NCBI GenBank assembly: GCA_963711945.1
Contig: CAVQGB010000013.1
Span: forward strand, 3,893-67,892
Direction of reading: 5' to 3'
Origin: an uncultured Verrucomicrobiae bacterium
Lineage (GTDB): Bacteria > Verrucomicrobiota > Verrucomicrobiia > Limisphaerales > UBA11358
DNA: 64,000 nt
Made by a program: the position numbers and the translations under genes. Position 1 is the first letter of the stretch. Each line of letters begins with the position of its first letter. The notes under the pieces were generated by a model. It saw nothing but the letters and a program-made list of their open reading frames with translations. It was not told where the DNA came from and made no database searches. Positions 11,796 through 62,034 of the stretch are shown one piece after another.

Positions 11796-12049
11796 CAGTG
11801 GTTCAGACACGACTCGAATTCCGTTCCCGCCCGGTTCAAATCTTCCCGCAGATACGGCAGCCAATCCCGCGCCGGTATCGGCGACACCGGCCAGGCTCCG
11901 GCCTCCGTCACCCACTCGGCCTCATACAAACGCGAGGCAAAAGGGTCGGCCTCCACTTCGCGCAGCCGGCCGCGAATGCGCCGCATCGCCGCCAAGGCGA
12001 CATCCCGGGCCGCCTCGCGCACCAACCGTTCGTTGTAGGTTTCTCTCAT
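11795..12049 (-). CDS. hypothetical protein (84 aa)
   Basis: It is an ORF in the E1 leftward operon. No motif was recognised. Confidence 0.35.
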   Translation of the reverse strand: MRETYNERLVREAARDVALAAMRRIRGRLREVEADPFASRLYEAEWVTEAGAWPVSPIPARDWLPYLREDLNRAGTEFESCLNH

Positions 12050-12097
12050 GGTTCGATTTGATCTGGACGTAATTCTTCTTCAAGCAATCCCGCCCTA

Positions 12098-12149
12098 CCC
12101 CCACCCGCCGCTCCGCGGCGGGTGGGGGCAAGGCGGGAACTGCCTTGCC
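12098..12149. other. two adjacent GC-rich hairpins in the 258-bp gap downstream of the Rep-like gene
   Basis: 12098-12111 (CCCCCACCCGCCGC) pairs perfectly with 12115-12128 (GCGGCGGGTGGGGG) around a 3-nt loop. GGCAAGGC (12127-12134) pairs with GCCTTGCC (12142-12149) around a 7-nt loop. Confidence 0.6.
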
Positions 12150-27842: not shown

Positions 27843-30560
27843 TCAGCGGTGGACAAGCTGCGCGATGATCGTGAGCAGCAATTCTTCGAGTTGAAACGGC
27901 TTGACCAGCCTGGCGGTTGTATCCGCACTTGAAAGCGCCTCCAGCTCACCGCTCATCAGAATGATGGGCACCGCTGGCGCCCGGGCGCGCAGGAACGGAA
28001 TGGTGGCCTGGCCGTCCAGCACCGGCATGTCCGTGTCGAGCAGGACGAGGCGCACTTCCCCGGCCTGCCGCTCGAACAGGGTTACGGCATCGGCACCGTT
28101 CGCGGCGGTGATGACGCGGTAGCCTTGCGCGGCGAGTCCAAGCGAAACCATTTCGCGAATCGCATTGTTCGTCATCCACGACCATAATCAATTCGCCATT
28201 GCCGCGGGGCAGTTCGGCCGGAGAAATACGTATTGCGATTGGCCGCCGTCTTCAGGATCGCGCAAGGCAGGTAAATCTCGAAGGTGGCGCCGCGTCCCGG
28301 TCTCGCTTTTCACATTCACAAATCCGCCGTGCTGGCTGACGATCCGCGCCAGTGGTGGAAAGCCCCAGGCCGGTTCCCTGCCCTGCCGGTTTGGTCGTGA
28401 AAAACGGCTCGAAAATGCGCGGCAGAATCTCCGGCGCGATGCCGCCGCCGGTGTCGGAAACGAGCAGCATGACAAAGCTGCCCGGCTTGCCGTTTGGAAT
28501 CTGCCCCGCTTCGTCGGCGCCCAGTTCGACGTTGTCCGCGGCCAGCGTAAGTTCGCCGCCATGCGGCATCGCGTCGCGGGCGTTGACGCAGAGATTGAGC
28601 AGCACCTGATGCAATTGGGTCGCGTTGCCAAGCACCGGCCAGAGATCGGCGGGCACCAGCGCGGCAACGTTGATGGATTTCGGGAAGGTTTGCCGGACGA
28701 TGCGTTCCATTTCGCGCACCAGGCCGCCGAGTGACAGCGGTTCCTTTTCGCTGGTCGCGTCCCCGCGAGAACAGCAGCACCTGCCTCACCATGTCCGCGC
28801 CGCGATGCGTGTTCTCCTCCATGACGGACAACATGCGGCGCGTCTCCTCGTCCAGGCGTTGCTTCTGCAGCAGTTGCAGCCCCATCAGAATCGGCGAGAG
28901 CGCATTGTTCAAATCGTGCGCCATGCCGCCCGCCAGCACGCCGATGCCTTCGATCCGTTGCGCGCGGAAAAACTCCAGCTTCCAGCCGCTTCTTTTCCGT
29001 CACGTCGGTGTTGATGAACAGCAGTGAGGTCGGTTCGCCGCGTTCGTTTCTGATGAGCGTGCAGCGGCTGGCGACGGTGAGCTTGCGGCCGTCGCGCGTC
29101 GTTTGTTCCAGTTCGCCCAGCCATTCGCCGGTCGCAAGCGCGGTTTGTCGCGCCTCGGCAAATTGTTTTTCGCACGGCGACCTACGGTCCGCCACGCCGC
29201 GCCGTCGCCTTGCAGTTCGGCGGCGCTCCAGCCGTAAAGCCGTTCCGCGCTGGGATTGGCGTAAATGATCCGGCCCGCGAAATCCTCGACCAGAATCGCG
29301 TCCTGCGCCTTTTCGATGAGCGCGGCCTGCTCGCGGATTTTCAGCTCGGCGGCACGCCGTTGCTGCTTCGAACCTCCGCTTTTGCCGATACCATTCGAGC
29401 GATTGGTAAAGCACGGAACCGGCCAGCGCCCCGGGGATTTGCACCGCGCCGATGATGAGCCAGGGAAACCAGATTTTCCCGGCGGTCAGCGCGAGCGCGG
29501 CGGCGCCGAGCACGCACAATTCAGCGGCCACGGCCGATGCCCGCCGCCGGCAGCGGCCGGAAACAAAACAGCACCCAGCCACATAAAATGGCGGAGAACA
29601 CCAGCACCAACACTTCCCTTGCCGGCGACAGACGGCGCAGCGAATCGCCGCGAAGGAGATTGAGCAATTGCGTGGCATGCACTTCCACCGCGGGCATGAA
29701 CAGTTCCCGGTCGCCCCAAGTTGTGAGCGGGCTGCGAAATTCATCTTTGCGTTCCAGAAACGATCCCGCCATCGGCCGCGCGCCAATGAACACAATCTTG
29801 CCGCGGAAGAATTCGTCACTGACTTCGTCCGCCCGCAACGCGGCGCTGTAGCTGACATGCGGCAGTGCGAGCGGCCTGCCGTAATAGCGCAGCCATTGCG
29901 GTCCGGGCGGGTTGGTCGCCGCCAAGCCCGAGGAGTTGCGCGGTGGCAAAGGCGAGACCGGGTTCCGGCAATGTGAGGAAGCCGGATGAACTGGCGGCGC
30001 ACAACAAAATCGTCGTCCACGATCAGCGTTCGCGAGGCCCCAGGCCGCCGCCGCGTCGAGAAATGGCTTGGCCGGCATGGAAAGTTGCAGCGATCGGGTG
30101 CCTTCCACCTGCGGCGTGGCGCGGCTGGAGCGGCTGATTTCCGCCGCCAGCACGGCGTGGCCGTTCGCCCGCAACGCCTCGGTGAATTCACGGTCCGCCG
30201 CCGCATCCGCGCCGGCTTCGTCGAAGATGATGTCGAACACGACCGCTTTCGCCCCGGCAGCGGTGAGCCGGTGAAGCAATTTGGCGTGCAAGGCGCGGCT
30301 CCACGGCTCGAGCGGGGTTCTGCTTTTCGCGCCGATACGAATCGAGGTCGAGATAGACGATGACCACCGGCGCGTTGCTCAACGCGGTTTCAGCAAGCAA
30401 TGTCTGCGACCAATCGTAACTTGCGCGCACCAGCGACGTGCCGGGGCGCGACCCGGGCGACAGCAGCCACACGCTCAACACCGCGAGCAGCGACGGCAAA
30501 GCCCGCCGTCGCCAGCGCGCGCGGATGTGTTTTGGATAAATCGGCGCAACACGTTAATCA
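27843..30560 (-). pseudogene. hybrid sensor histidine kinase CHASE2-TM-PAS-HisKA-HATPase-REC; at least 6 frame changes as assembled (5' end approximate)
   Basis: Fragments lie in different frames:
- CHASE2: APVVIVYLDLDSY, LHAKLLHRLTAAGAKAVVFDIIFDE, KIVFIGARP
- PAS: GEWLGELEQTTRDGRKLTVASRCTLIRNERGEPTSLLFINTDVTEKKRLEA
- HisKA: LAGGMAHDLNNALSPILMGLQLL
- HATPase: [19 protein letters not shown]...[33 protein letters not shown]
- Linker: PRGNGELIMVVDDE
- REC: AIREMVSLGLAAQGYRVITAANGADAV...LLDTDMPVLDG...KPF. Confidence 0.75.
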
Positions 30561-30561
30561 A

Positions 30562-33500
30562 TCATATCGCTAAAAGTTCATTCGCACCGACGACCGTCAA
30601 CGTGCGGCTGCGGGCGAGTCCCGATTGCAGGTTCAACGGATTGAGCCGGTAATCCTGGTCGGTCAGATTCAACATGCCGAGGCGCAGTTCGGCGCGGCGA
30701 TGCGGAAAAACATAGCCGGCAAAAATGTTGTGCTGCCAGAAATCATCGCCCGGCCACGCCCGGCGTATAGCCGTGGTTGTCCTGATGATACCAGTCCGAC
30801 GACCACTCGGCGAAAAATCCGCACGGGTGATTGTAGATGCAGAAAAATCTGGCCGTGATGCAGCACCGCGCGCTCATTTTGCTCCTGCGACGAAACGCCT
30901 GGAACGCCGGCCAGATCGGGAAGCCGCGTGTTGAGTTTCGCCTCGCTCAACCGGTAGCGCGCTCCGGCGGACCAATCTCGTCCGATCAGTTGATTCACAT
31001 ACGCCGAGAGATTGCGCTCGCTGATAATCGAGCGTCTGGCGGGTCGTCGTCGGCGCATCCGGCACCGGGAATGAACGGGATGGAATTGGTGAACGCACCC
31101 ACATTCGCGCGAGCCGTCGGATTGGAGCAGTTCCGCGCCGATGCCGAAATACGTCTGGCTGGGCAGCGATTGATCAAAGCCGAGCGTCCACGAGTCGAAC
31201 TTCGTGCCGGGCACCAGCCCTTCGACGGATTCGGGAATCAAACTGCGAAACGCGCTGGTCGAGCCGGCAACCTGCGCCGGTTCCAGCCGGATGCTGTTGT
31301 CGAAAAAAAGTCCGCCGAGCGAACGCGTCCACGCGCCGCGCAGCCAGCCGCCGCGCCACGGTTCAGCCGTGAACCCCACTTTCGGCCCCAGCAGCGAACG
31401 CCGATCCTTCGCCGCCGAGCACCGGCGGCAAATCCACGTTTTGCGGATAGGTCAGCTGGTCGTAACTCAAACCGGCGGTCATACGAAACTCGGTGATTGG
31501 CCGCCATTGATAATAGCCGTAGCCGTTGAGCCGTTCCAGATATGGCGATGCGGACTGGTCAATGATCGTCGCTGACCAGGCGCGTGAGCGTCGAGTGCGT
31601 GTCCACCGTGCCGTGCTGATAACGCCCGCCGATAATCAGCGCGTGTTGCGGGGATTCCCAAATCTGCTGCGCTTCGGCGGAATAAAGCGTGAAATTCAGG
31701 TCCTGCTTCAACGTGAAAAGCGGGTCGGCATCCACACCGACTGAATCCCGCGCCATCCTGCTGCATGAACAGCACGCTCGGCTGCGGGTTGGTCAGCGAG
31801 AGCCGGTCGGTAAGCCGGGAGAACAAGAGCAGCGTGTGGCTGCCGGGCGACCATTCGTGATTCCAGCCGAGGAACAGATTTGGGTTCTGCTCCTCCGTCA
31901 CGCGCAAACCGAGGATCGGCGTCCGATCGGATCGTAATGTTGCGCCACGTCGCCGCTCTCACCGTGAAAATAGCCCGCCTGAAAATAGGCGCTGTCGCCC
32001 GGCGTGATTTGTTGTTTGGCCGTGAATGAGAACTGGCGGTCCTTCAGGTCATTGTTCGGGCGCTGGCCGTTCTGGGAAACATATTGCGCATCGAGCGCGT
32101 AACTGAATCCGCCGGCGGAACCAAAGGCCGTGGCCGCCTGGTTCCAATCGCCGCCGCTGCCGTATTCGGTCAACGAACTGAAACCAAACGGGCGCGTGTC
32201 GAAATATTGCAGGCGGTCCTGCTGCGACAGGATTTGCGACAAGATTGCCGCCGCCCGGCGGCGCGAGCAGGTTGGCGACCAGCAATTCGCTTTCGCGCGC
32301 CGTTTCCAGACGCAAATCGAACCGCTGCGGGTCTTCCTGGTTTCCCAGGCTGTCCGCGAGAAACAGATGGCCGGCAAAATCGGAATACGATTCCTCGACG
32401 GCGCGGCTGGCGGCGCGGTCGCTGACTTCGGTCATTCCCGCCGCGTCATAAATTGCCGCGAGATCGGCGCTGCGCGCGGCGCGGTCGCGATCCAGTTGCA
32501 GCCGCGAGCGGAAGACGCTGCGGTTGTCGTTCAACTCCACCGAGTGCTCCAGGTCGCGCACGGCAGTCATTGACCTGATGCGTCTGAAACCGGTGCAACG
32601 CGGAGTAAAGCCACGCCGTCGGATCGGCCGGATCCAGCTTTTGCGCGAGGGCGAAATCCTTTTCGGCAAGTTTGTCCTCGCCGGATTGGCTCCACGCCTT
32701 GCCAAGGTAGCTGCGGAACAATCCGCGCTGCGGCTCCAGCGTGGCGGCAATCTGCAAATCGCGGCGCGCCTGCTTCGTCGTTGCCCAGCTTGAGCCTCGC
32801 GCCAGCGCGCGGCCAAGCCAGGCGCTGGGCAGCGAGCCGTCCAGCGCCAGCGCGCGGTCAAACCAGTCCAGCGCGGGGTGCGGATGATTTTCCGCCAGCG
32901 CCATGAACCCTTCCAGCGCGACCGCCTGCGCGTTGCGCGGCGAAAGCGACCGGGCGCGATCCAGCGCGTCGCGCGCCGCGCGGCGATGCTCGAAATCAAA
33001 TTCCAGCTCGGCCACGCGCGCCCAGGCGAAACCGAATTCCGGGCGCGAGCTTCGCCGCCTGCCGCGCGGCGTTCAACGCGGCGGGAAGTTGCGACCGGGA
33101 TTGGAGATAATACGAACGCGCCAGCCAGCCGCTGCTGTTGGTGGGATCGGGCAGCGGAGTGATCGGTTGAAATTTCACGGCGGCGATGAGTTCGCGGAGT
33201 GGAGCGGCGGTTTCGCCCGCGGGCGCGATCAAGGCTTCGGCCTCCTCGACCTGGCCGACGGCAAGTTTGAGCGCGGCGAAATAGGTTCGCGTGGCGGCGG
33301 ATTGCGTCGGCCAGTTCGTCCGGCGCTTCGGCGAGAGCCTGGAGCAAATCGCCGCGGCGTAGGCGGAAAGCGATTTCGCGAGCGCGGTTCTTTCCGCGTC
33401 GGTGAACGGAATTTCGTCCGGATTCAGAACGGCCGGGTAATAAAAGCACCATTGGATCAAATTCACGGCGGGCAAAACGGCGATGAGTTGCGCGCGGCTG

Positions 33501-34078
33501 GCCGGGTTGCACCAGCGCCTGCTGGCCGCTGGTGAGCTGCAATTCCTCGCCGGCCGTCTTGAGATCCACCGCGCCGTCGAGCAAGGCCAGGCGCGTGGCG
33601 GCATCGGCTTCGGCGACGGCGAGGAAAAATTCCGTGCCGCGAATCGCGCCGGTGGCCAGCGGCGTCTCGAACTCGACATCGGCGGGCTGCTCGCGATCGA
33701 AGAAAGAAGAGCGCGCCGCGCTTGAGTCCGAAACGATGCCGCGCGGGCTGCGCGGGCGGCTCGATTTCGAGGAGGGTGGATTGGCTGACGCGGATGACGC
33801 TGCGGTCGGAAAGCTGCAGGGTCGCCCGGCTGTCGGCGGCGGTCCGCAGGCGGTCGCCGGGATGAAGGAATTGATTGATGCGCGCCGGCTGCCAGTCGTT
33901 GGTGTTGGCGACGGTGATCTCGACCTTCCGGCAAATTCGACAAGCCGGCTGGCGGCGATTGGTGTCGGCGGACGCCGGCGGTTCGGCGCGGGCGATGGAA
34001 ATCATCGCGCAAAACGCCATGCCCGCCAGCGTCCAGCGAAGCGCGCGAGCCGGTCCAATGACAAAATGTTTTTGACAT
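30562..34078 (-). pseudogene. secreted FecR-domain / TPR-repeat / C-terminal beta-barrel protein; at least 8 frame changes as assembled
   Basis: The signal peptide is reconstructed as MSK.HFVIGPARALRWTLAGMAFCAMISIARA. Other fragments are FecR-like (GDRLRTAADSRATLQLSDRSVIRVSQSTLLEIE, LLDGAVDLKTAGEELQLTSGQQALV) and TPR (ALDWFDRALALDGSLPSAWLGRA...YLGKAW). A barrel-like tail reads GWNHEWSPGSHTLLLFS...LNLTDQDYRLNP. Confidence 0.6.
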
Positions 34079-34235
34079 CGAGTTCTGGCAAATTCTTACG
34101 AGCAGTTGACGATGCCGGGGCGTGCGGCATGGATAAAATCACGTTTGCCGGTCCGTTCTTCAGAGTCAAACGGACCATTGCCGGTCCGCAATCGAACCGC
34201 GAAACGGAGTTTGGCCAGAGTCGTTCAAATACGTT

Positions 34236-35658
34236 TCAGGTTGGGCGCGGAGTCACCTGCCGCAGCTCCGGCCATTTTTCCAGCCGCCGCAGCAGCGCCT
34301 GATGCGTGATGCCGAGGCGCGTGGCGGCGCGGCGGATGCCGCCGCCCTCGGCCTGCAACGCCTGCTGGATGAGGCGGTATTCCTGAAGATCAATCGCATT
34401 GAGTTGCCGCTCGGGCGGAGGCGGAGGAAATGAATCGCCGGTGACGGCGGCGGCCTCGCCGCCCGGCGTGCTGCTCAACCACGCCGAGATCAAACGCCAG
34501 CCAGGGAGCATCGTCCGGCGTCCGCAGCAGGGCGCGTTCGAGGAGATTGCGCAACTCGCGCACGTTGCCGGGGAAATGATAGCCGCGCAAGGCTTCGAGA
34601 TCGCCCGGTTTGAGGAACGGTTTCTTGCGCCGGTATTTTTCGCAGAGCTGCGCCAGGAGGTTTTCAACGAGCGGTTCGAGATCGGAAATGTGCTCGCGCA
34701 GGGCCGGCAAGCGCACCGTCGCCACGGTCAGGCGAAACATCAGATCCTCGCGAAAGCGTCCGCGTTTGACTTCGTCGGCCAGCGAACGGTTGGTGGCGGC
34801 GACGATCCGGCCGGAGAATTCGCGCAGCGTGTTGCTGCCGAGCGGGCGATACTCGCGGGACTCCAGAAAGCGCAGCAGCTTGGCCTGTTGCGGCAGGGGC
34901 GTCTCGGTGATTTCATCCAGGAACAGCGTCCCGCCGGCGGCGGCTTCGATGAGGCCCTCGCGGCGTTTGTCCGCGCCGGTGAAAGCGCCTTTCTCGCTGC
35001 CGAACAACTCGGATTCAAACATCTCGGCCGGCACGGCGGAGCAGTTCAACGGAACGTAAGGCGCGGGCGCCGGCCGGGCGGCATAAGTGAGGCGATGCAG
35101 CAGCCGCGCGGCGAGGTCCTTGCCGGTGCCGGTCTCGCCGAGAAGCAGCACGGTGGTTTCGGCATGGCGGGCGGCCTGCCGGAGCGAGTTCACGGCTTCG
35201 CGCAGGGCCGGAGAATCGCCGATCAGTTCGCCGGCAACGTCCGCGCGGTCGGGATGGCTGAGGCGTTGCCGGACGCGGTGCAGGCAGGCGGTGAAATCGG
35301 CGACATTGAGCGGTTTGGTCAGATAATCGAACAGGCCGTTGCGCGTGAGTTCAACGGCCTGGGCCAGTTCCGGCACGCCCGTCACCATCACGACAACGCT
35401 GTCGGGGCAGCGTCGGTTCAACTGCGGGAAAAAATCATAGCCCGTGCCGTCCGGCAGGCGGTTATCGAGCAGGACGAGATCAAAGGCGCGGCGTTCGGTT
35501 TCAGCGCGCGCGGATTTCAAATCCGCGCACTGGCTGACCTGGCCGCCTTCCTGGCTCACGACTTTGGCAAGCATGGAGACAAAACCCGCGTCGTCATCCA
35601 CGATGAGGCAGGAGAACTTATCCGGGTTGCTCATGAATTTACCGGATTGGTTTGACAC
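34236..35658 (-). pseudogene. sigma54-dependent response regulator (REC-AAA+-Fis HTH, NtrC family); one frame change near 34.45 kb
   Basis: Fragments are FSCLIVDDDAGF...LLDNRLPDGTG (REC), LLLGETGTGKDLAARLLH (Walker A) and GAFTGA, the sigma54 contact motif. Further fragments are GGTLFLDEI, and after the shift IRRAATRLGITHQALLRRL (HTH). Confidence 0.85.
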
Positions 35659-35674
35659 ATATTCCGCGGAACAA

Positions 35675-37372
35675 TCAAGGCGTATGAACGCGAAGGAACA
35701 GCGGGCCGTTGTCGGTCGTCGAGTTGGTCAGCCAGATAATGCCGCCGTAATCCGGAAAGGCATTCGTCCAGTACGACCAGGATCCGGCGCCGAAATCGGC
35801 GGCGCAGTCCACCGAATATTGGTAGCCGCGGACACCCGGGAAAGGCGGAAACCATCCAGTTTGACGCCGGGTTCAGGCTGACGAAGGGCGAGCTGACCAC
35901 CGTGACGTTGGCGGGGGCGCTGGTGACCGAGCCGGCAAAGTTGGTCACGACCACCGTGTAAACGCCGCTGTCCTGGCTTTGGGGAGATCGGAGCAGAAAG
36001 GCTGGCATTGGTTTGCTGACTGAAGTTTGGAATTGTTCTTCCACCATTGATAGGCAAGAGGCGCGGTGCCGCTGGCGACGACGCTCAGGGCCACAGCCGT
36101 TTGCGTCGCCAACATCAGGGGTTGCGGCTGGCTGGTCAGAACGGCGGCACTGCCGGAAGGCCCGGGCTCAACGAGTAATTCAAGTGCGCGATGCCGCGCG
36201 CGCCGTTGACGCCACCCACGACGATGAAATAGTTGCCGCCGTTGGTGGTGATGAATTGAACCTGGCTGGCGTTGGTGCCGGTGCCGCCGCTGTTGTTGTC
36301 GCAGGCGACGGAAATCAGGTTGCTGTAGCTGGTGAGCGCGCCGGTATAGGTGAAACCGCCAAGCAGCGTGGGGAACGAACTGTTGCTGGTGTCGATCGTC
36401 ATGAGGCCGTTGGTCGGGGCTTGATAGGAAAACCAATATGCGGCGCCGGGCGGCACCCCGCAAATCGATCGGCGCATTCGGATCCACGATCGCGTTGGTG
36501 GTGTTGAAGATTTGTGTGCCATTGTAGCCGAGCATCAACCCCGCCGCTCAAACCCGAGATGCGCGGCGTCGGCAAGTTTGTTGCGGGCGAGCACCTTGGT
36601 CTGGCCCTCCGAATTCACCTGGATCTCGATGGCGGAACTGAAAAAGCTGTCGTCGTTCAAATAGAACTTCAACGCGTAAAGCCCGAGATTGGTGCGTTGC
36701 AGGCTGGGAATCACCAGCGTCGGGTCCACGGAATCGTCGTCCTGACCGGAAACCGGCATGCCGTTGAGATACCATTTGAATTGCAGGTTCGGGCTGGGCA
36801 GCAGATTGATGGTGAGAATGAGCGGATCGCCCAGACGCAACGACTGGTCACCCGGCAGACGCAACACCGTCGGCTGGAGGTTCGAGGAAGAGAGAAAATT
36901 GAGTTGCAAGGAGAATATTCCCGCTCGCGCCGTTGAAGCCGTCCACGGCGATTTGATAGGTCTGGTTGGAATTGGCGCCAAACTGCAGATAGGAGGTCAC
37001 CAGCCCGCCGTAATCGTCGTCGGAGGCGATTCCCTGAAGCCGTTCCAGCGGCGGGTCGTTGCCCGACTCCAGCGTATAAACCGCCAGCAAGGTGTCAAAC
37101 GAACTGCCAGCCGTGCTCAGCGTGACCAGGCCGTCGCCCGGCGCGAGCCAGGAAATCCACACCGAATGGCCGCCGATTTTGCCGGCATGCAAAGGCTCGC
37201 CGGGTTCGACCGTGGCGTTTGTGTTTGAACCGGTCACCAGCGCGGAAGTGGTGTTGGTCAGCGCCTGTCGTCCCGCGAACATGTCGGAAAAGCTTTGGGC
37301 AAATGACGCCGGGCGCAGGAGCAGGAGGCCGAACAAAACCACCAACCACTTGACTTGGACATTTCGAATCAC
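35675..37372 (-). pseudogene. secreted protein with two PPC/pre-peptidase-C-like domains and Ig-like domains; about 5 frame changes
   Basis: It has a signal peptide (MIRNVQVKWLVVLFGLLLLRPASFAQS). A repeated domain reads EPGEPLHAGKIGGHSVWISWLAPGDGLVTLSTAGSSFDTLLAVYT and GVPPGAAYWFSYQAPTNGLMTIDTSNSSFPTLLGGFT. An Ig-like repeat reads LQFKWYLNGMPVSGQ. The reconstructed C-terminus is RGYQYSVDCAADFGAGSWSYW...LFLRVHTP*. Confidence 0.55.
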
Positions 37373-58980: not shown

Positions 58981-61900
58981 CTACGAATAATTCTCCATCC
59001 CCGCGCAGGAGCAGACCGGATTGCGGTCGCCAAAAACGTTGTCCACGCGGCTGACATGCGGCCAGAATTTGTAATCGTGCAAATCCTTCGCCGGAAACGC
59101 CGCCTGTTCGCGCGAATACGGTCGGTTCCAGTCGTCGCTGGCGATTTGATCCGCGGTGTGCGGAGCGTTTTTGAGCAGATTGTTCTTCGCATCGGCGGTG
59201 CCGTTTTCCACGGCGGTCATTTCGGCGTGGATGGCAATCATCGCATCGCAGAAACGATCAAGTTCGTATTTCGATTCGCTCTCGGTCGGCTCCACCATGA
59301 GCGTGCCGGCCACCGGAAACGAAAGCGTCGGCGCGTGGAAGCCGTAATCCATCAGCCGTTTCGCCACGTCCTCGGCGGTTGTGGCGTGGAAGCCGCGCAA
59401 ATCCAGAATGCACTCGTGCGCCACGAGCGGATGTAATCCGCTGCTCCTGTAGAGCGTCGGGAAATGTTTCTCGAGCCGCTTGGAAATGTAATTTGCGTTG
59501 AGGATGGCGAATTTCGTCGCTTCGGTCAGCCCGTCCGCGCCCATCATGGCGATATACATCCAGGAAATGGGCAGGATGCTCGCGCTGCCCCACGGCGCGG
59601 CACTGACAGGGCCGATGGCAACGGTAGGGCGCGTCACTCCGTGCGCGCCGGTTTTTTCGACATCATCTGACGGCGCGCACGGAGTGACGCGCCCTACCAG
59701 CCGCGATGTGAACACGGGATGACTCGGCAGGAACGGCACCAGATGTTTCGCCACGCCGATCGGTCCGACACCCGGACCGCCGCCGCCGTGTGGAATGCAA
59801 AACGTCTTGTGCAGATTCAAATGGCAAACGTCCGCACCGATGAAGCCCGGCGAAGTCAAACCAACCTGCGCGTTCATGTTCGCGCCGTCCATGTAGACCT
59901 GCCCGCCGTTCGCGTGGATGATGTCGCAAATCTCGCGGATGGTTTCCTCGAACACACCGTGCGTGCTCGGATACGTCACCATGAGGCAGGACAAATCAAT
60001 TTTGTGCGCCTCGGCCTTGGCCTTGAGATCGGCCACATCAATGTTGCCGTTGGTGTCGCACGCGACGGCGACGATTTTCATGCCGGCCATCGCGGCGCTG
60101 GCGGGATTCGTGCCGTGCGCGGAAGTGGGAATCAAACACACCTTCCGGTGTGGCTCTTTGCGCGATTCGTGCCAGGCTCGGATGACGAGCAGTCCGGTGT
60201 ATTCGCCCTGCGAACCGGCATTCGGCTGCAATGAAATGCCGGCGAACCCCGTGCATTCCGCGAGCCAGTCTTCGAGGTTCTGAAAAAGAATCTGGTAACC
60301 GCGTGCCTGCCCCAGTGGCGCGAACGGATGAATCTTCGCAAACTCCGGCCACGAGACGGGAAACATCTCCGCCGCCGCATTCAGCTTCATAGTGCAGGAG
60401 CCGAGCGGAATCATCGAAGCCGTGAGCGACAGATCGCGCGATTCCAGCCGCTTGATGTAGCGGAGCATCTCCGTCTCGGAGTGGTGACGATTAAAGACGG
60501 GGTGCTGAAGGAATTTGCTGGTGCGCTTGAACTGATCTGATGGTCCTGACTTTATTTCTCCAACATCAAAATGTTTTTTCGGTGTGACATGTTCCAGAGG
60601 TTTGCCGGTAAAAATGGAAATCAATTCATACAAGGTTGCTAAACTTGAAGTTTCATCGAACGAAACAGAAATCAAATTTTCTCCGCACGAACGGAGATTA
60701 ATTGAAGCTCCTGCCGCGCGTAGAAGTATTTCATCACGTTGTTTTGTGGGCTCGCATTTCACTCCAACCGTGTCAAAATATTCTGCGCACGTCAGTTTGA
60801 AGTTATATGCCGTCAATGCACCTGCAAAAGAATCCGCGATGTTATTCACGCGCGCGGCAATCTTCTTCAATCCATCTGCCCCGTGATAGCAGGCATAAAG
60901 CGACGCCATGTTCGCGAGCAGCGCCTGCGCCGTGCAGATGTTGCTCGTGGCCTTTTCGCGGCGGATGTGTTGTTCGCGCGTGCCGAGCGCGAGGCGCAAC
61001 GCCGGTTTGCCGCGCGAATCTTTGGAAACGCCGACGATGCGTCCGGGCATCTGGCGTTTAAATTCGTCGCGCGTGGCGAAGAACGCCGCGTGCGGTCCGC
61101 CATAGCCGAGCGGCACGCCGAAGCGTTGCGCGCTGCCAACGGCGATATCCGCGCCGAATTCGCCCGGCGGCTTGATGAGCGTTAGCGCCAGCAAATCCGT
61201 GGCGACGGTGAGCATCGCGCCGACAGCATGGGCCTTTTCGCCAAGGCCGGAATAATCGTGAATCGCGCCAAAAGTGTCGGGATATTGCACCAGCACACCG
61301 AAAACTTTGCCGCTGAACTGAAAAGTTTCGTGGTTACCGACGACGACTTCAACGCCGAGCGCCGCGCCGCGCGTGCGGACGACTTCGATGTTTTGCGGAT
61401 GGCAATTTTCGGAAACGAAGAAAACATCGCGTAGCTGTGCCGCCCCGTCGCAGATTGTGCGCGCGACGCCTCCGTCGCGCGAAACCGGCGACGAGGCGTC
61501 GCCTTTACCCTCTGCGACGAAGGCGGCGCAGCTACGCGCGCCTTTGCACCGATGGCTCATCATCATCGCCTCGGCGCAGGCGGTGGCCTCGTCGAGCAGC
61601 GAGGCGTTGGCGATGTCCATTGCCGTCAGGTCAGTGACCATCGTCTGGAAATTCAAAAGCGCTTCAAGCCGGCCCTGCGAAATCTCGGCTTGATACGGCG
61701 TGTATTGCGTGAACCAGCCGGGATTTTCCAGCACGTTGCGCTGAATGACCGGCGGCGTGATGCAATCGTAGTATCCCTGGCCGATGAACGAGCGGAAGAC
61801 CTTGTTTTCACCGGCAATCCGGCGGAGTTCGGCGAGCGCTTCGAATTCACTTTTGGCGGCGGGCAAATTTAATTTCTTATCGAGCCGGATTTCCTTGGGA

Positions 61901-62034
61901 ACGGCGGCGTCAACAAGTTCGTCGAGATTATTGAAACCGAGCGACGCGAGCATGTCGCGCGTTTCGCCCATGTTCGGGCCGATGTGTCGGCGGACAAACT
62001 GGTCGGGATGCGATAAAATGTCGGTCAAAGCCAT
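58981..62034 (-). CDS. gcvP: glycine dehydrogenase (decarboxylating), glycine cleavage system P protein, single-chain; 1017 aa with two extra in-frame segments
   Basis: Similarity is end to end (FVRRHIGPN..., [59 protein letters not shown]). It is about 60 aa longer than typical GcvP because of the two palindromic inserts listed separately. Confidence 0.92.
59623..59698. repeat. 76-bp perfect palindromic element inside gcvP coding sequence
   Basis: GGTAGGGCGCGTCACTCCGTGCGCGCCG (59623-59650) is the exact reverse complement of 59671-59698, with a 20-nt loop. It is translated as ..[24 protein letters not shown]... Confidence 0.9.
61428..61538. repeat. 111-bp compound palindromic element inside gcvP coding sequence
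   Basis: The outer arms are CGCGTAGCTGTGCCGCCCCGTCGCAGA and TCTGCGACGAAGGCGGCGCAGCTACGCG (about 24/27). Inner hairpins are CGCGACG-CCTC-CGTCGCG and GGCGAC-GAG-GCGTCGCC. The length is exactly 37 codons. Confidence 0.8.

Follow-up and report, generated by a model that had tools for sequence, protein, structure and literature searches.

How does a perfect DNA palindrome come to lie in frame inside the gene of a conserved metabolic enzyme, and what kind of element is it? The question is raised by a stretch of 64,000 nucleotides from an uncultured Verrucomicrobiae bacterium (assembly GCA_963711945.1, contig CAVQGB010000013.1; the whole stretch is called the window below), in which gcvP, the gene for the glycine dehydrogenase P-protein, contains a palindrome of 76 nt. 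Our results make it very probable that this palindrome is an inverted doublet of a 28-nt repetitive extragenic palindromic (REP) unit with a GTAG head, similar to the doublets known as REPINs, and that it belongs to a family dispersed in Verrucomicrobiota.

Anatomy of the palindrome in gcvP

The host gene is an open reading frame (ORF) of 1017 codons whose product has 8000 homologues and carries the Pfam domains GDC-P and GcvP2_C. Its best solved relative is the Synechocystis P-protein (4LGL, E = 0), its closest homologues are labelled Verrucomicrobiae by their sources, and the nearest in the database is 84% identical. An initial annotation, made from the DNA letters alone, had described two exact 28-bp arms around a 20-nt spacer, in frame within this ORF. 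A repeat search of the window returned precisely this structure (59623-59650 and 59671-59698, 28 nt each, 100% complementary, with a 20-nt gap), and gcvP is the sole long ORF at that place. The arm 28-mer occurs at this single pair of sites in the window, even when up to 3 mismatches are allowed, and 0 of 100 shuffles gave a match. The parts of the locus are the following:

58981..62034, minus strand: gcvP, glycine dehydrogenase (decarboxylating) P-protein, assigned from the ORF list, homologues and Pfam; host of this palindrome and of a second one described further below
59671..59698, minus strand: REP unit 1, the gene-proximal arm, GGTAGGGCGCGTCACTCCGTGCGCGCCG on the gene strand, with GTAG head and stem-loop; encodes V780-P788
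59651..59670, minus strand: spacer of 20 nt, TCAGATGATGTCGAAAAAAC on the gene strand; encodes SDDVEKT and is homologous to the gcvP spacers of five orthologues
59623..59650, minus strand: REP unit 2, the inverted copy of the 28-mer, CGGCGCGCACGGAGTGACGCGCCCTACC on the gene strand; encodes G796-T804

Read along the gene strand, the element runs from GGTAGGGCGCGTCACTCCGTGCGCGCCG through TCAGATGATGTCGAAAAAAC to CGGCGCGCACGGAGTGACGCGCCCTACC. A GTAG head joined to a short imperfect palindrome makes a REP unit, and two such units in inverted orientation make a REP doublet, or REPIN. Both arms are built in this way: each begins with GGTAG on its own strand, each is an imperfect palindrome in the range of 20-40 nt with a stem-loop of its own (GGCGCG-t-CAC / TCC / GTG-CGCGCC in unit 1), and the two are inverted, 20 nt apart. 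When folded alone, the 28-mer leaves GGTAG unpaired and forms a 9-bp stem with one bulge and a 3-nt loop (-10.3 kcal/mol, z = -3.0). The complete 76-mer, folded as single-stranded DNA, reaches -43.4 kcal/mol (z = -12.5), and the mRNA segment that contains it -72.7 kcal/mol (z = -8.7), in agreement with the very stable mid-gene mRNA hairpin that had been predicted.

Two of the three reading frames of the unit are open, the third having TAG or TGA, and gcvP uses the open frame VGRVTPCAP...GAHGVTRPT. The REP-encoded segment comprises residues 780-804 (25 residues) plus the third base of the Leu779 codon, and it begins 37 residues after the pyridoxal phosphate (PLP) lysine of the enzyme, K743, which stands in an invariant column. 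The annotation had counted about 25-28 added residues. This is accurate for the 25 encoded residues and too high for the net gain, which is +18 residues against the nearest empty-site orthologues, since about 8 native loop residues (E-D-M-D-H-S-K-Q) are replaced; against E. coli GcvP we take the net gain to be roughly +23 residues.

The length gaps between the gcvP copies of this element in different orthologues (see below) are multiples of 3, and stop codons are present in none of the copies. The triplet gaps argue for translation of the segment, and we infer that the insert is translated. The opposite possibility is an intervening sequence that is missing from the mature protein, whether through RNA excision, through translational bypass or through protein splicing; its removal would be convenient because a mid-ORF hairpin of this stability would hinder ribosomes. 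We consider this extremely unlikely. Not only are the triplet gaps and the open frames of the copies at odds with it, but excision would also shift the frame, since neither 76 nt, the length of the element, nor 74 nt, its length from GTAG to CTAC, is divisible by 3; 25 residues are far below the size of an intein; and no intron family was matched in Rfam. Indeed, Rfam (at gathering thresholds) and a tRNA scan gave no match in the window, and neither a glycine riboswitch nor another known RNA was found at the element.

A dispersed family and its candidate transposase

We scanned one genome per bacterial species with a core 22-mer pattern, GGGCGCGNCNCTCCGTGCGCGC. Among the matches listed, to which all counts for the family refer, about 80 metagenome-assembled genomes (MAGs) contributed at least 119 DNA stretches with the core. 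Nearly all of these MAGs are labelled Verrucomicrobiota (Limisphaerales, Pedosphaera, Verrucomicrobiales, Chthoniobacterales, Ca. Udaeobacter and subdivision 3), and several have copies on three to five contigs. The unit is strongly conserved, 102 of the 143 units listed being equal to the window 28-mer at all positions left free by the pattern; the heads are GGTA in 102 units, GGCA in 13 and GGTG in 5. An inverted partner lies no more than 140 nt away for 73% of the units, with a modal spacer of 18-20 nt. This partner is the same unit in 45 cases and a second unit type, GGTAGGGCGGGCAGTCCTCTGCCCGCCG, in 60 (the type-2 unit folds at -13.2 kcal/mol, z = -5.4). Units are also found singly, and pairing with the second type occurs over spacers of 0-107 nt. 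As a homodimer with a 20-nt spacer, the window copy is thus a typical doublet of the family. The family is largely extragenic: some 20-25 of about 120 loci (about a fifth) look intragenic and the others intergenic, and the window copy belongs to the intragenic minority. Some of the repeat-bearing MAGs are titled Bifidobacterium, Klebsiella, Hyphomicrobiales or Ca. Sulfotelmatobacter (loci L017, L018, L035-L037, L057, L061, L067, L079-L081, L089 and L119); these taxon labels of co-assembly bins are probably wrong, or the bins contaminated.

The annotation had also proposed that the element landed in a coding region, and copies in other genes agree with this. Requiring an open frame across the unit and at least 60 codons on either side, we obtained 55 unit-by-frame candidates. 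Nine of these were scanned against Pfam, and in 9/9 a domain spans the insert. The hosts are:

glutaminyl-tRNA synthetase (GlnS)
pyridine nucleotide-disulphide oxidoreductase
PrpD
two methyltransferases, one of them PrmC
MetH, with two inserts
N6/N4 DNA methylase
Ser/Thr kinase, with the insert in the activation loop
radical-SAM enzyme of the CofH/MqnC type

Both open frames of the unit are in use among the host genes, giving either GRARHSVRA...RRARSDAPY or VGRVTPCAP...GAHGVTRPT. A protein-database search with the concatenated REP-encoded peptide yielded 18 candidates, all of them short hypothetical ORFs.

The DNA fetched for these loci was searched with E. coli TnpA-REP, the query sequence having been verified against PDB 4ER8. 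This revealed two ORFs of about 155 residues each, at 1318-1785 in L090 and at about 3890-4348 in L015, that resemble a REP-associated tyrosine transposase (RAYT). Their proteins contain the HUH motif LLMPDHLHAII and the Tyr motif TSYILMNPV, and doublets of the window's REP family stand immediately on both sides of both genes, in a 'REPtron' arrangement. The sole NCBIfam match is NF047646, REP-associated tyrosine transposase (E = 1.3e-18), and the L090 protein aligns with TnpA-REP over the HUH and Tyr motifs, the similarity being weak (about 32% over 81 residues). These genes surfaced only in the targeted TnpA-REP search: all-against-all clustering of the 3075 ORFs of the fetched loci gave no protein family repeatedly beside the repeats. 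As far as sequence can tell, the association between family and transposase is real in related genomes, the protein being a divergent RAYT-like one.

These results separate the two halves of the 'REP/MITE-like' label that the annotation had given to the element. The REP half holds, with a GTAG-headed REP/REPIN family and a RAYT-like gene flanked by its doublets in two MAGs. The other half would make it a classical miniature inverted-repeat transposable element (MITE), that is, a deletion derivative of an insertion sequence with a DDE transposase, bounded by terminal inverted repeats and a target duplication. The element is indeed short, palindromic, dispersed and non-autonomous, as a MITE would be. 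However, no target-site duplication was seen at the window copy, where the flanks are CGGCT before the G...C of the element and GTTGCC after it, nor at the unrelated gcvP insertion of L128 when compared with the empty site of L124. This lack fits a Y1 transposase and not a DDE transposase. Moreover, each arm is itself a GTAG-headed stem-loop, single units occur, second-type pairing extends over spacers of 0 to 107 nt, and the only transposase-like gene found flanked by units is of the Y1/RAYT type. A classical MITE is hence very unlikely.

The gcvP loop in orthologues

To delimit the insert we compared the 120 best GcvP homologues. At the site in question 95 of the 120 are without insert, while the other 25 carry one at exactly that place, the peptides of these 25 inserts forming six or more unrelated families. 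DNA was fetched for eleven gcvP genes. All five insert families examined as DNA proved palindromic, all three with readable unit structure proved REP-like, and the empty site of L124 is non-palindromic. An orthologue alignment, proposed in the initial annotation as a way of defining the insert, does so. Orthologues that encode the same peptide as the window, which might have done so without any palindrome, are palindromic, two of them intact and others partly decayed. Besides the window's own family, here called A, the inserts at this position include:

insert family B: GGCAGGGTCGTCGCGCTGCGACGA...CCCTACC
insert family C: GTGG heads, two hairpins
insert family D: 20-nt arms, CGTTGGAGTTCACGCTTCAG...
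singleton insert L128: 14-nt arms with a long spacer between them

Families A and B have identical nucleotide boundaries, the flank CGGCTG being followed by G(T/C)AGGG and the insert ending in CCCTACC, and in both about eight native loop residues are gone. The L128 insert sits within an intact native loop. Target-site duplication was seen at none of the gcvP inserts examined.

Family A occupies the same codon in six orthologues (the window, L001, L003, L133, L134 and L125). The peptides encoded by its spacers (SDDVEKT, SADVEKS, SADAEKS, PDEGEKS, AADETS and SDSTKS) are clearly homologous, whereas the spacers of intergenic copies of the family are unrelated, which suggests that the gcvP copy arose once. 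The arms have diverged far less than their surroundings. Between the window and L001 the genes are 81% identical (64% at third codon positions); the arms differ at 1/56 positions (binomial P = 1e-4) and the spacers at 5/20. Across lineages the arms differ at 1-5/56 positions and the spacers at 4-5/20, and in three lineages the arms are conserved above the host-gene background. In L134 the arms are 10 and 7 positions off the type-1 unit, and the right arms of L125 and L134 are nearer to the second unit type (4 and 5 differences, vs 7 from type 1).

The presence of the element in several orthologues also bears on whether it could be an artefact of assembly, a local fold-back or chimera, as the annotation had allowed. 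The window does come from a metagenome-type assembly, and the related contig L003 resembles a large fold-back assembly: at 5700-14450 of L003 (ena:ERZ25039473:contig_164268) fragments of gcvP, hemerythrin and DUF2817 genes mirror complete genes on the opposite strand. Nevertheless, assemblies made independently from different samples (L001 and L002, L003, L125, L133, L134) show the element at the identical codon, L001 and L002 being two independent assemblies of one orthologue carrying it. In addition, the 1017-codon frame stays open, the element is typical of its family, which about 80 other genomes share, and fold-backs give long mirror duplications rather than 28-nt arms around a unique 20-nt spacer. 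We can therefore give almost no credence to an artefact.

Several observations weigh against the interpretation of the palindrome as a REP doublet of a mobile family that resides harmlessly in GcvP. First, the family A arms are decayed in L133 (9 mismatches between the arms) and in L134, and one homologous insert is patchily spread over the GcvP tree, which simple vertical descent does not explain. Second, the 64-kb window holds a single doublet of the 28-mer family, and the TnpA-REP search did not find a RAYT gene in it. Third, the RAYT-like proteins score 67 bits against NF047646, below the curated cut-off of 80 bits, and gave no match in a Pfam search; to our knowledge there is no direct demonstration of transposition by RAYTs. 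Finally, an AlphaFold2 model of the enzyme (60 homologues, all >75% identical) did not place the loop (mean predicted local distance difference test score, pLDDT, 46; predicted template modelling score, pTM, 0.31). We also searched the literature for an account of this loop in the structure of the Synechocystis P-protein and found none that was of use.

How, then, has family A been maintained in gcvP? In a neighbour-joining protein tree from which the loop columns had been removed, the six carriers are scattered among empty-site lineages, and parsimony requires 21 state changes for the 25 inserted sequences; this tree is weak, with short internal branches. Taken at face value, it would imply repeated loss, lateral exchange of alleles, or both. 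The simplest reading of the arms is that they have been refreshed in some lineages, through gene conversion, re-copying or selection for transposase recognition, and drift as relics in others. The perfect arms of the window copy suggest recent refreshment.

Since families A and B share their boundaries, and family A keeps a homologous spacer while its right arm switches unit type, it is possible, if rather doubtful, that this GcvP loop is a landing pad, with REP doublets of one family taking the place of those of another at the same spot. If this is true, a conserved and translated gene would be a site of active re-copying or conversion of REP populations, with alleles passing from lineage to lineage. 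Taken with the near identity of the 28-mer in several orders of Verrucomicrobiota, this would mean that REPIN-like replicators of the phylum regularly inhabit coding sequence.

The conservation of the arms could also be read in terms of gcvP itself, the hairpin being selected as an RNase III/RNase E site, a translational pause at a domain boundary, a gyrase site or an antisense terminator. In favour of such a role are the arms conserved above background in three lineages, the presence of at least five unrelated palindrome families at one codon position in different lineages and the high stability of the hairpins. Furthermore, the left REP unit together with the GGTTTTTT that follows it fits the intrinsic-terminator consensus on the plus strand (59628-59659), antisense to gcvP. 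On the other hand, 95 of 120 orthologues do without any insert, the arms are decaying in L133 and L134, the family is present in many unrelated genes and is mostly intergenic, so that it is not specific to gcvP, and Rfam gave no match. A function for gcvP is hence improbable. The A-run of the spacer, GAAAAAAC (codons Glu-Lys), is retained by most gcvP copies of the element; its retention and the antisense terminator-like match may be a coincidence. In three related genomes (L001, L123 and L126) gcvP adjoins gyrB, with gyrA next after gyrB in L001 and L126. REPs of E. coli are gyrase-binding sites; the adjacency of gcvP and gyrB is probably coincidental.

The window gcvP hosts a further palindrome, which the initial annotation did not include:

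61431..61535, minus strand: second palindromic insert, unrelated to the first, 105 nt or 35 codons, about residues 167-202

On the gene strand it extends from GTAG at 61535 to CTAC at 61431. Its outer units, GTAGCTGYGCCGCCYYCGTCGCAG, are GTAG-headed stem-loops around two inner GC hairpins, and the whole folds at -92.8 kcal/mol (z = -10.1). The insert is exclusive to the window protein, whose segment is 52 residues long as opposed to 17-24 in the other 119 orthologues. Its 14-mers revealed no family in about 1 Mb of other Verrucomicrobiota DNA, and a metagenome scan with the outer unit returned four loci only. One of them (L132) has a compound architecture like that of the second insert, at an unrelated locus; the others (L129-L131) have a single GTAGCTGCGCCGCCCTCGTCGCAG unit with its partner in frame in gcvT (aminomethyltransferase) of a soil bacterium, so that another glycine-cleavage gene bears a palindrome. 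The second insert is thus a rarer family of the same general kind.

Other features of GcvP and of the window deserve mention. At other positions of the protein (alignment columns 249-271 and 542-626) there are short lineage-specific inserts with repeat-like peptides (VGQASSLPDSR, GQASRLSPS, EMRQARRLS) in homologues P0015, P0039, P0046, P0052, P0089, P0094 and P0116, some orthologues reaching 1038-1057 residues with three or four inserts. The inserts of P0069 and P0081 (alignment columns 801-829) read ...VLFFDEADALYGKR..., similar to the Walker B segment of an AAA+ ATPase, and the precomputed Pfam list of these two proteins contains PF00004; this would amount to part of an ATPase gene within GcvP. 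P0022, encoded at 10001-13117 of L003, has a 53-residue insert (…TRVTVEMKAGLEKISQERGEGISVIAREAFREYL) in alignment columns 542-598 that looks like a ribbon-helix-helix (CopG-type) domain inside GcvP; the contig is suspect. Elsewhere in the window, a simple scan for a GTAG head with a hairpin gave no other convincing REPs. A palindrome at 12088-12138 (24-nt arms, 92% complementary, 3-nt loop), which contains CGCCCTACC, is apparently in intergenic DNA, just past about 12048-12050, where a minus-strand gene seems to have its start codon; it could be a terminator or else a REP-like unit from a different family. The G+C content is 46% at 24001-26000, 62-66% at 28001-36000 and about 57% over other parts of the window, and this shift near 24-36 kb may mark the edge of foreign DNA. 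Clustered regularly interspaced short palindromic repeats (CRISPR) were considered and rejected, no array being present.

Proposed mechanism and known systems

REP/RAYT systems suggest by analogy that a Y1 (HUH) RAYT probably mobilises the family, or maintains it, in the form of single-stranded hairpin DNA; what is known of IS200/IS605 and RAYT enzymes suggests that this would take place without target duplication. One copy would have come into the length-variable GcvP loop, past the PLP lysine, in a frame free of stops, and would be transcribed and translated as 25 extra residues. The enzyme presumably tolerates the insert, which may form a solvent-exposed surface loop neutral to its activity, and the element, a selfish or neutral doublet on this view, would have no need of a host function, persisting because the loop is permissive. 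Its arms would be held near the master sequence by re-copying or gene conversion from other copies, or by selection for transposase recognition.

Inserts of this kind inflate protein lengths, produce spurious 'variable regions' in alignments and yield recurrent short peptides that can be mistaken for motifs. With its recurrent loop occupation and with arms that have changed far less than the host gene, the gcvP locus is a tractable case for the study of REPIN maintenance. It bears on whether target choice or selection decides the sites at which elements survive, without overturning current understanding.

Among known systems, the REPs and bacterial interspersed mosaic elements of E. coli, with their TnpA-REP (4ER8), share with the window element the GTAG head, the imperfect palindrome and the inverted pairs. 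They differ in being extragenic, and their unit sequences are unrelated.

The initial annotation had drawn an analogy with the palindromic elements of Rickettsia (RPEs). Ogata et al. are said to have described these in 2000 and 2002 in frame in conserved protein genes, where they are thought to be tolerated as surface segments, the decorated proteins reportedly being expressed. RPE-1 is longer, about 100-150 bp, and we know of no established link between RPEs and a RAYT. The analogy holds for in-frame palindromic insertion in conserved protein genes, of which the gcvP copy is an example. It stops at the host phylum, here Verrucomicrobiota, and at the tag, since the window unit is GTAG-tagged while RPE-4 and RPE-6, the intragenic REPs of R. 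conorii, belong to the CGTC-tagged group (PMC3733652). The RPEs of Ogata et al. are cited both there and in PMC10969869. A closer precedent is found in the intragenic GTAG REP dimers discussed below.

In the REPIN-RAYT systems (Bertels and Rainey 2011, PLoS Genet, PMC3116915) the repeats stand on both sides of a Y1 transposase gene present in a single copy, and REPINs are essentially extragenic. The window family resembles them in its inverted REP doublets, long hairpin and copies around a master sequence. It departs from them in that the window copy lies within the reading frame of a conserved metabolic gene, and in that many of the family doublets are heterodimers of two unit types.

The nearest precedent is the survey in which REPs were sorted into GTAG and CGTC superfamilies (Di Nocera, De Gregorio and Rocco 2013, BMC Genomics 14:522, PMC3733652). 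There, intragenic GTAG REPs were most numerous in Opitutus terrae, intragenic dimers encoded 20-30 residues, some ORFs were hit twice, different REPs occupied about the same recB site in two Xanthomonas species, and most GTAG families were accompanied by REP-flanked RAYT genes, the REPtrons. The supplementary tables of that work contain neither the window 28-mer nor gcvP as a host gene. The window element matches these REPs in its GTAG head with stem-loop, its inverted dimer, its position inside an ORF and the two inserts in one ORF. REPs inside genes have thus been known since 2013, and the gcvP element is a clear and fairly ordinary case of the phenomenon, which it extends from one cultured Verrucomicrobium to many uncultured lineages, together with a 28-nt family and its candidate transposase. 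Our observations go modestly beyond the literature consulted in three respects: the unit is nearly unchanged across many Verrucomicrobiota lineages, not restricted to one species as in the families of 2013; a single GcvP loop has been used repeatedly by unrelated palindromes, at least six insert families recurring at one gcvP codon position; and well-kept arms coexist with a drifting spacer inside a translated gene.

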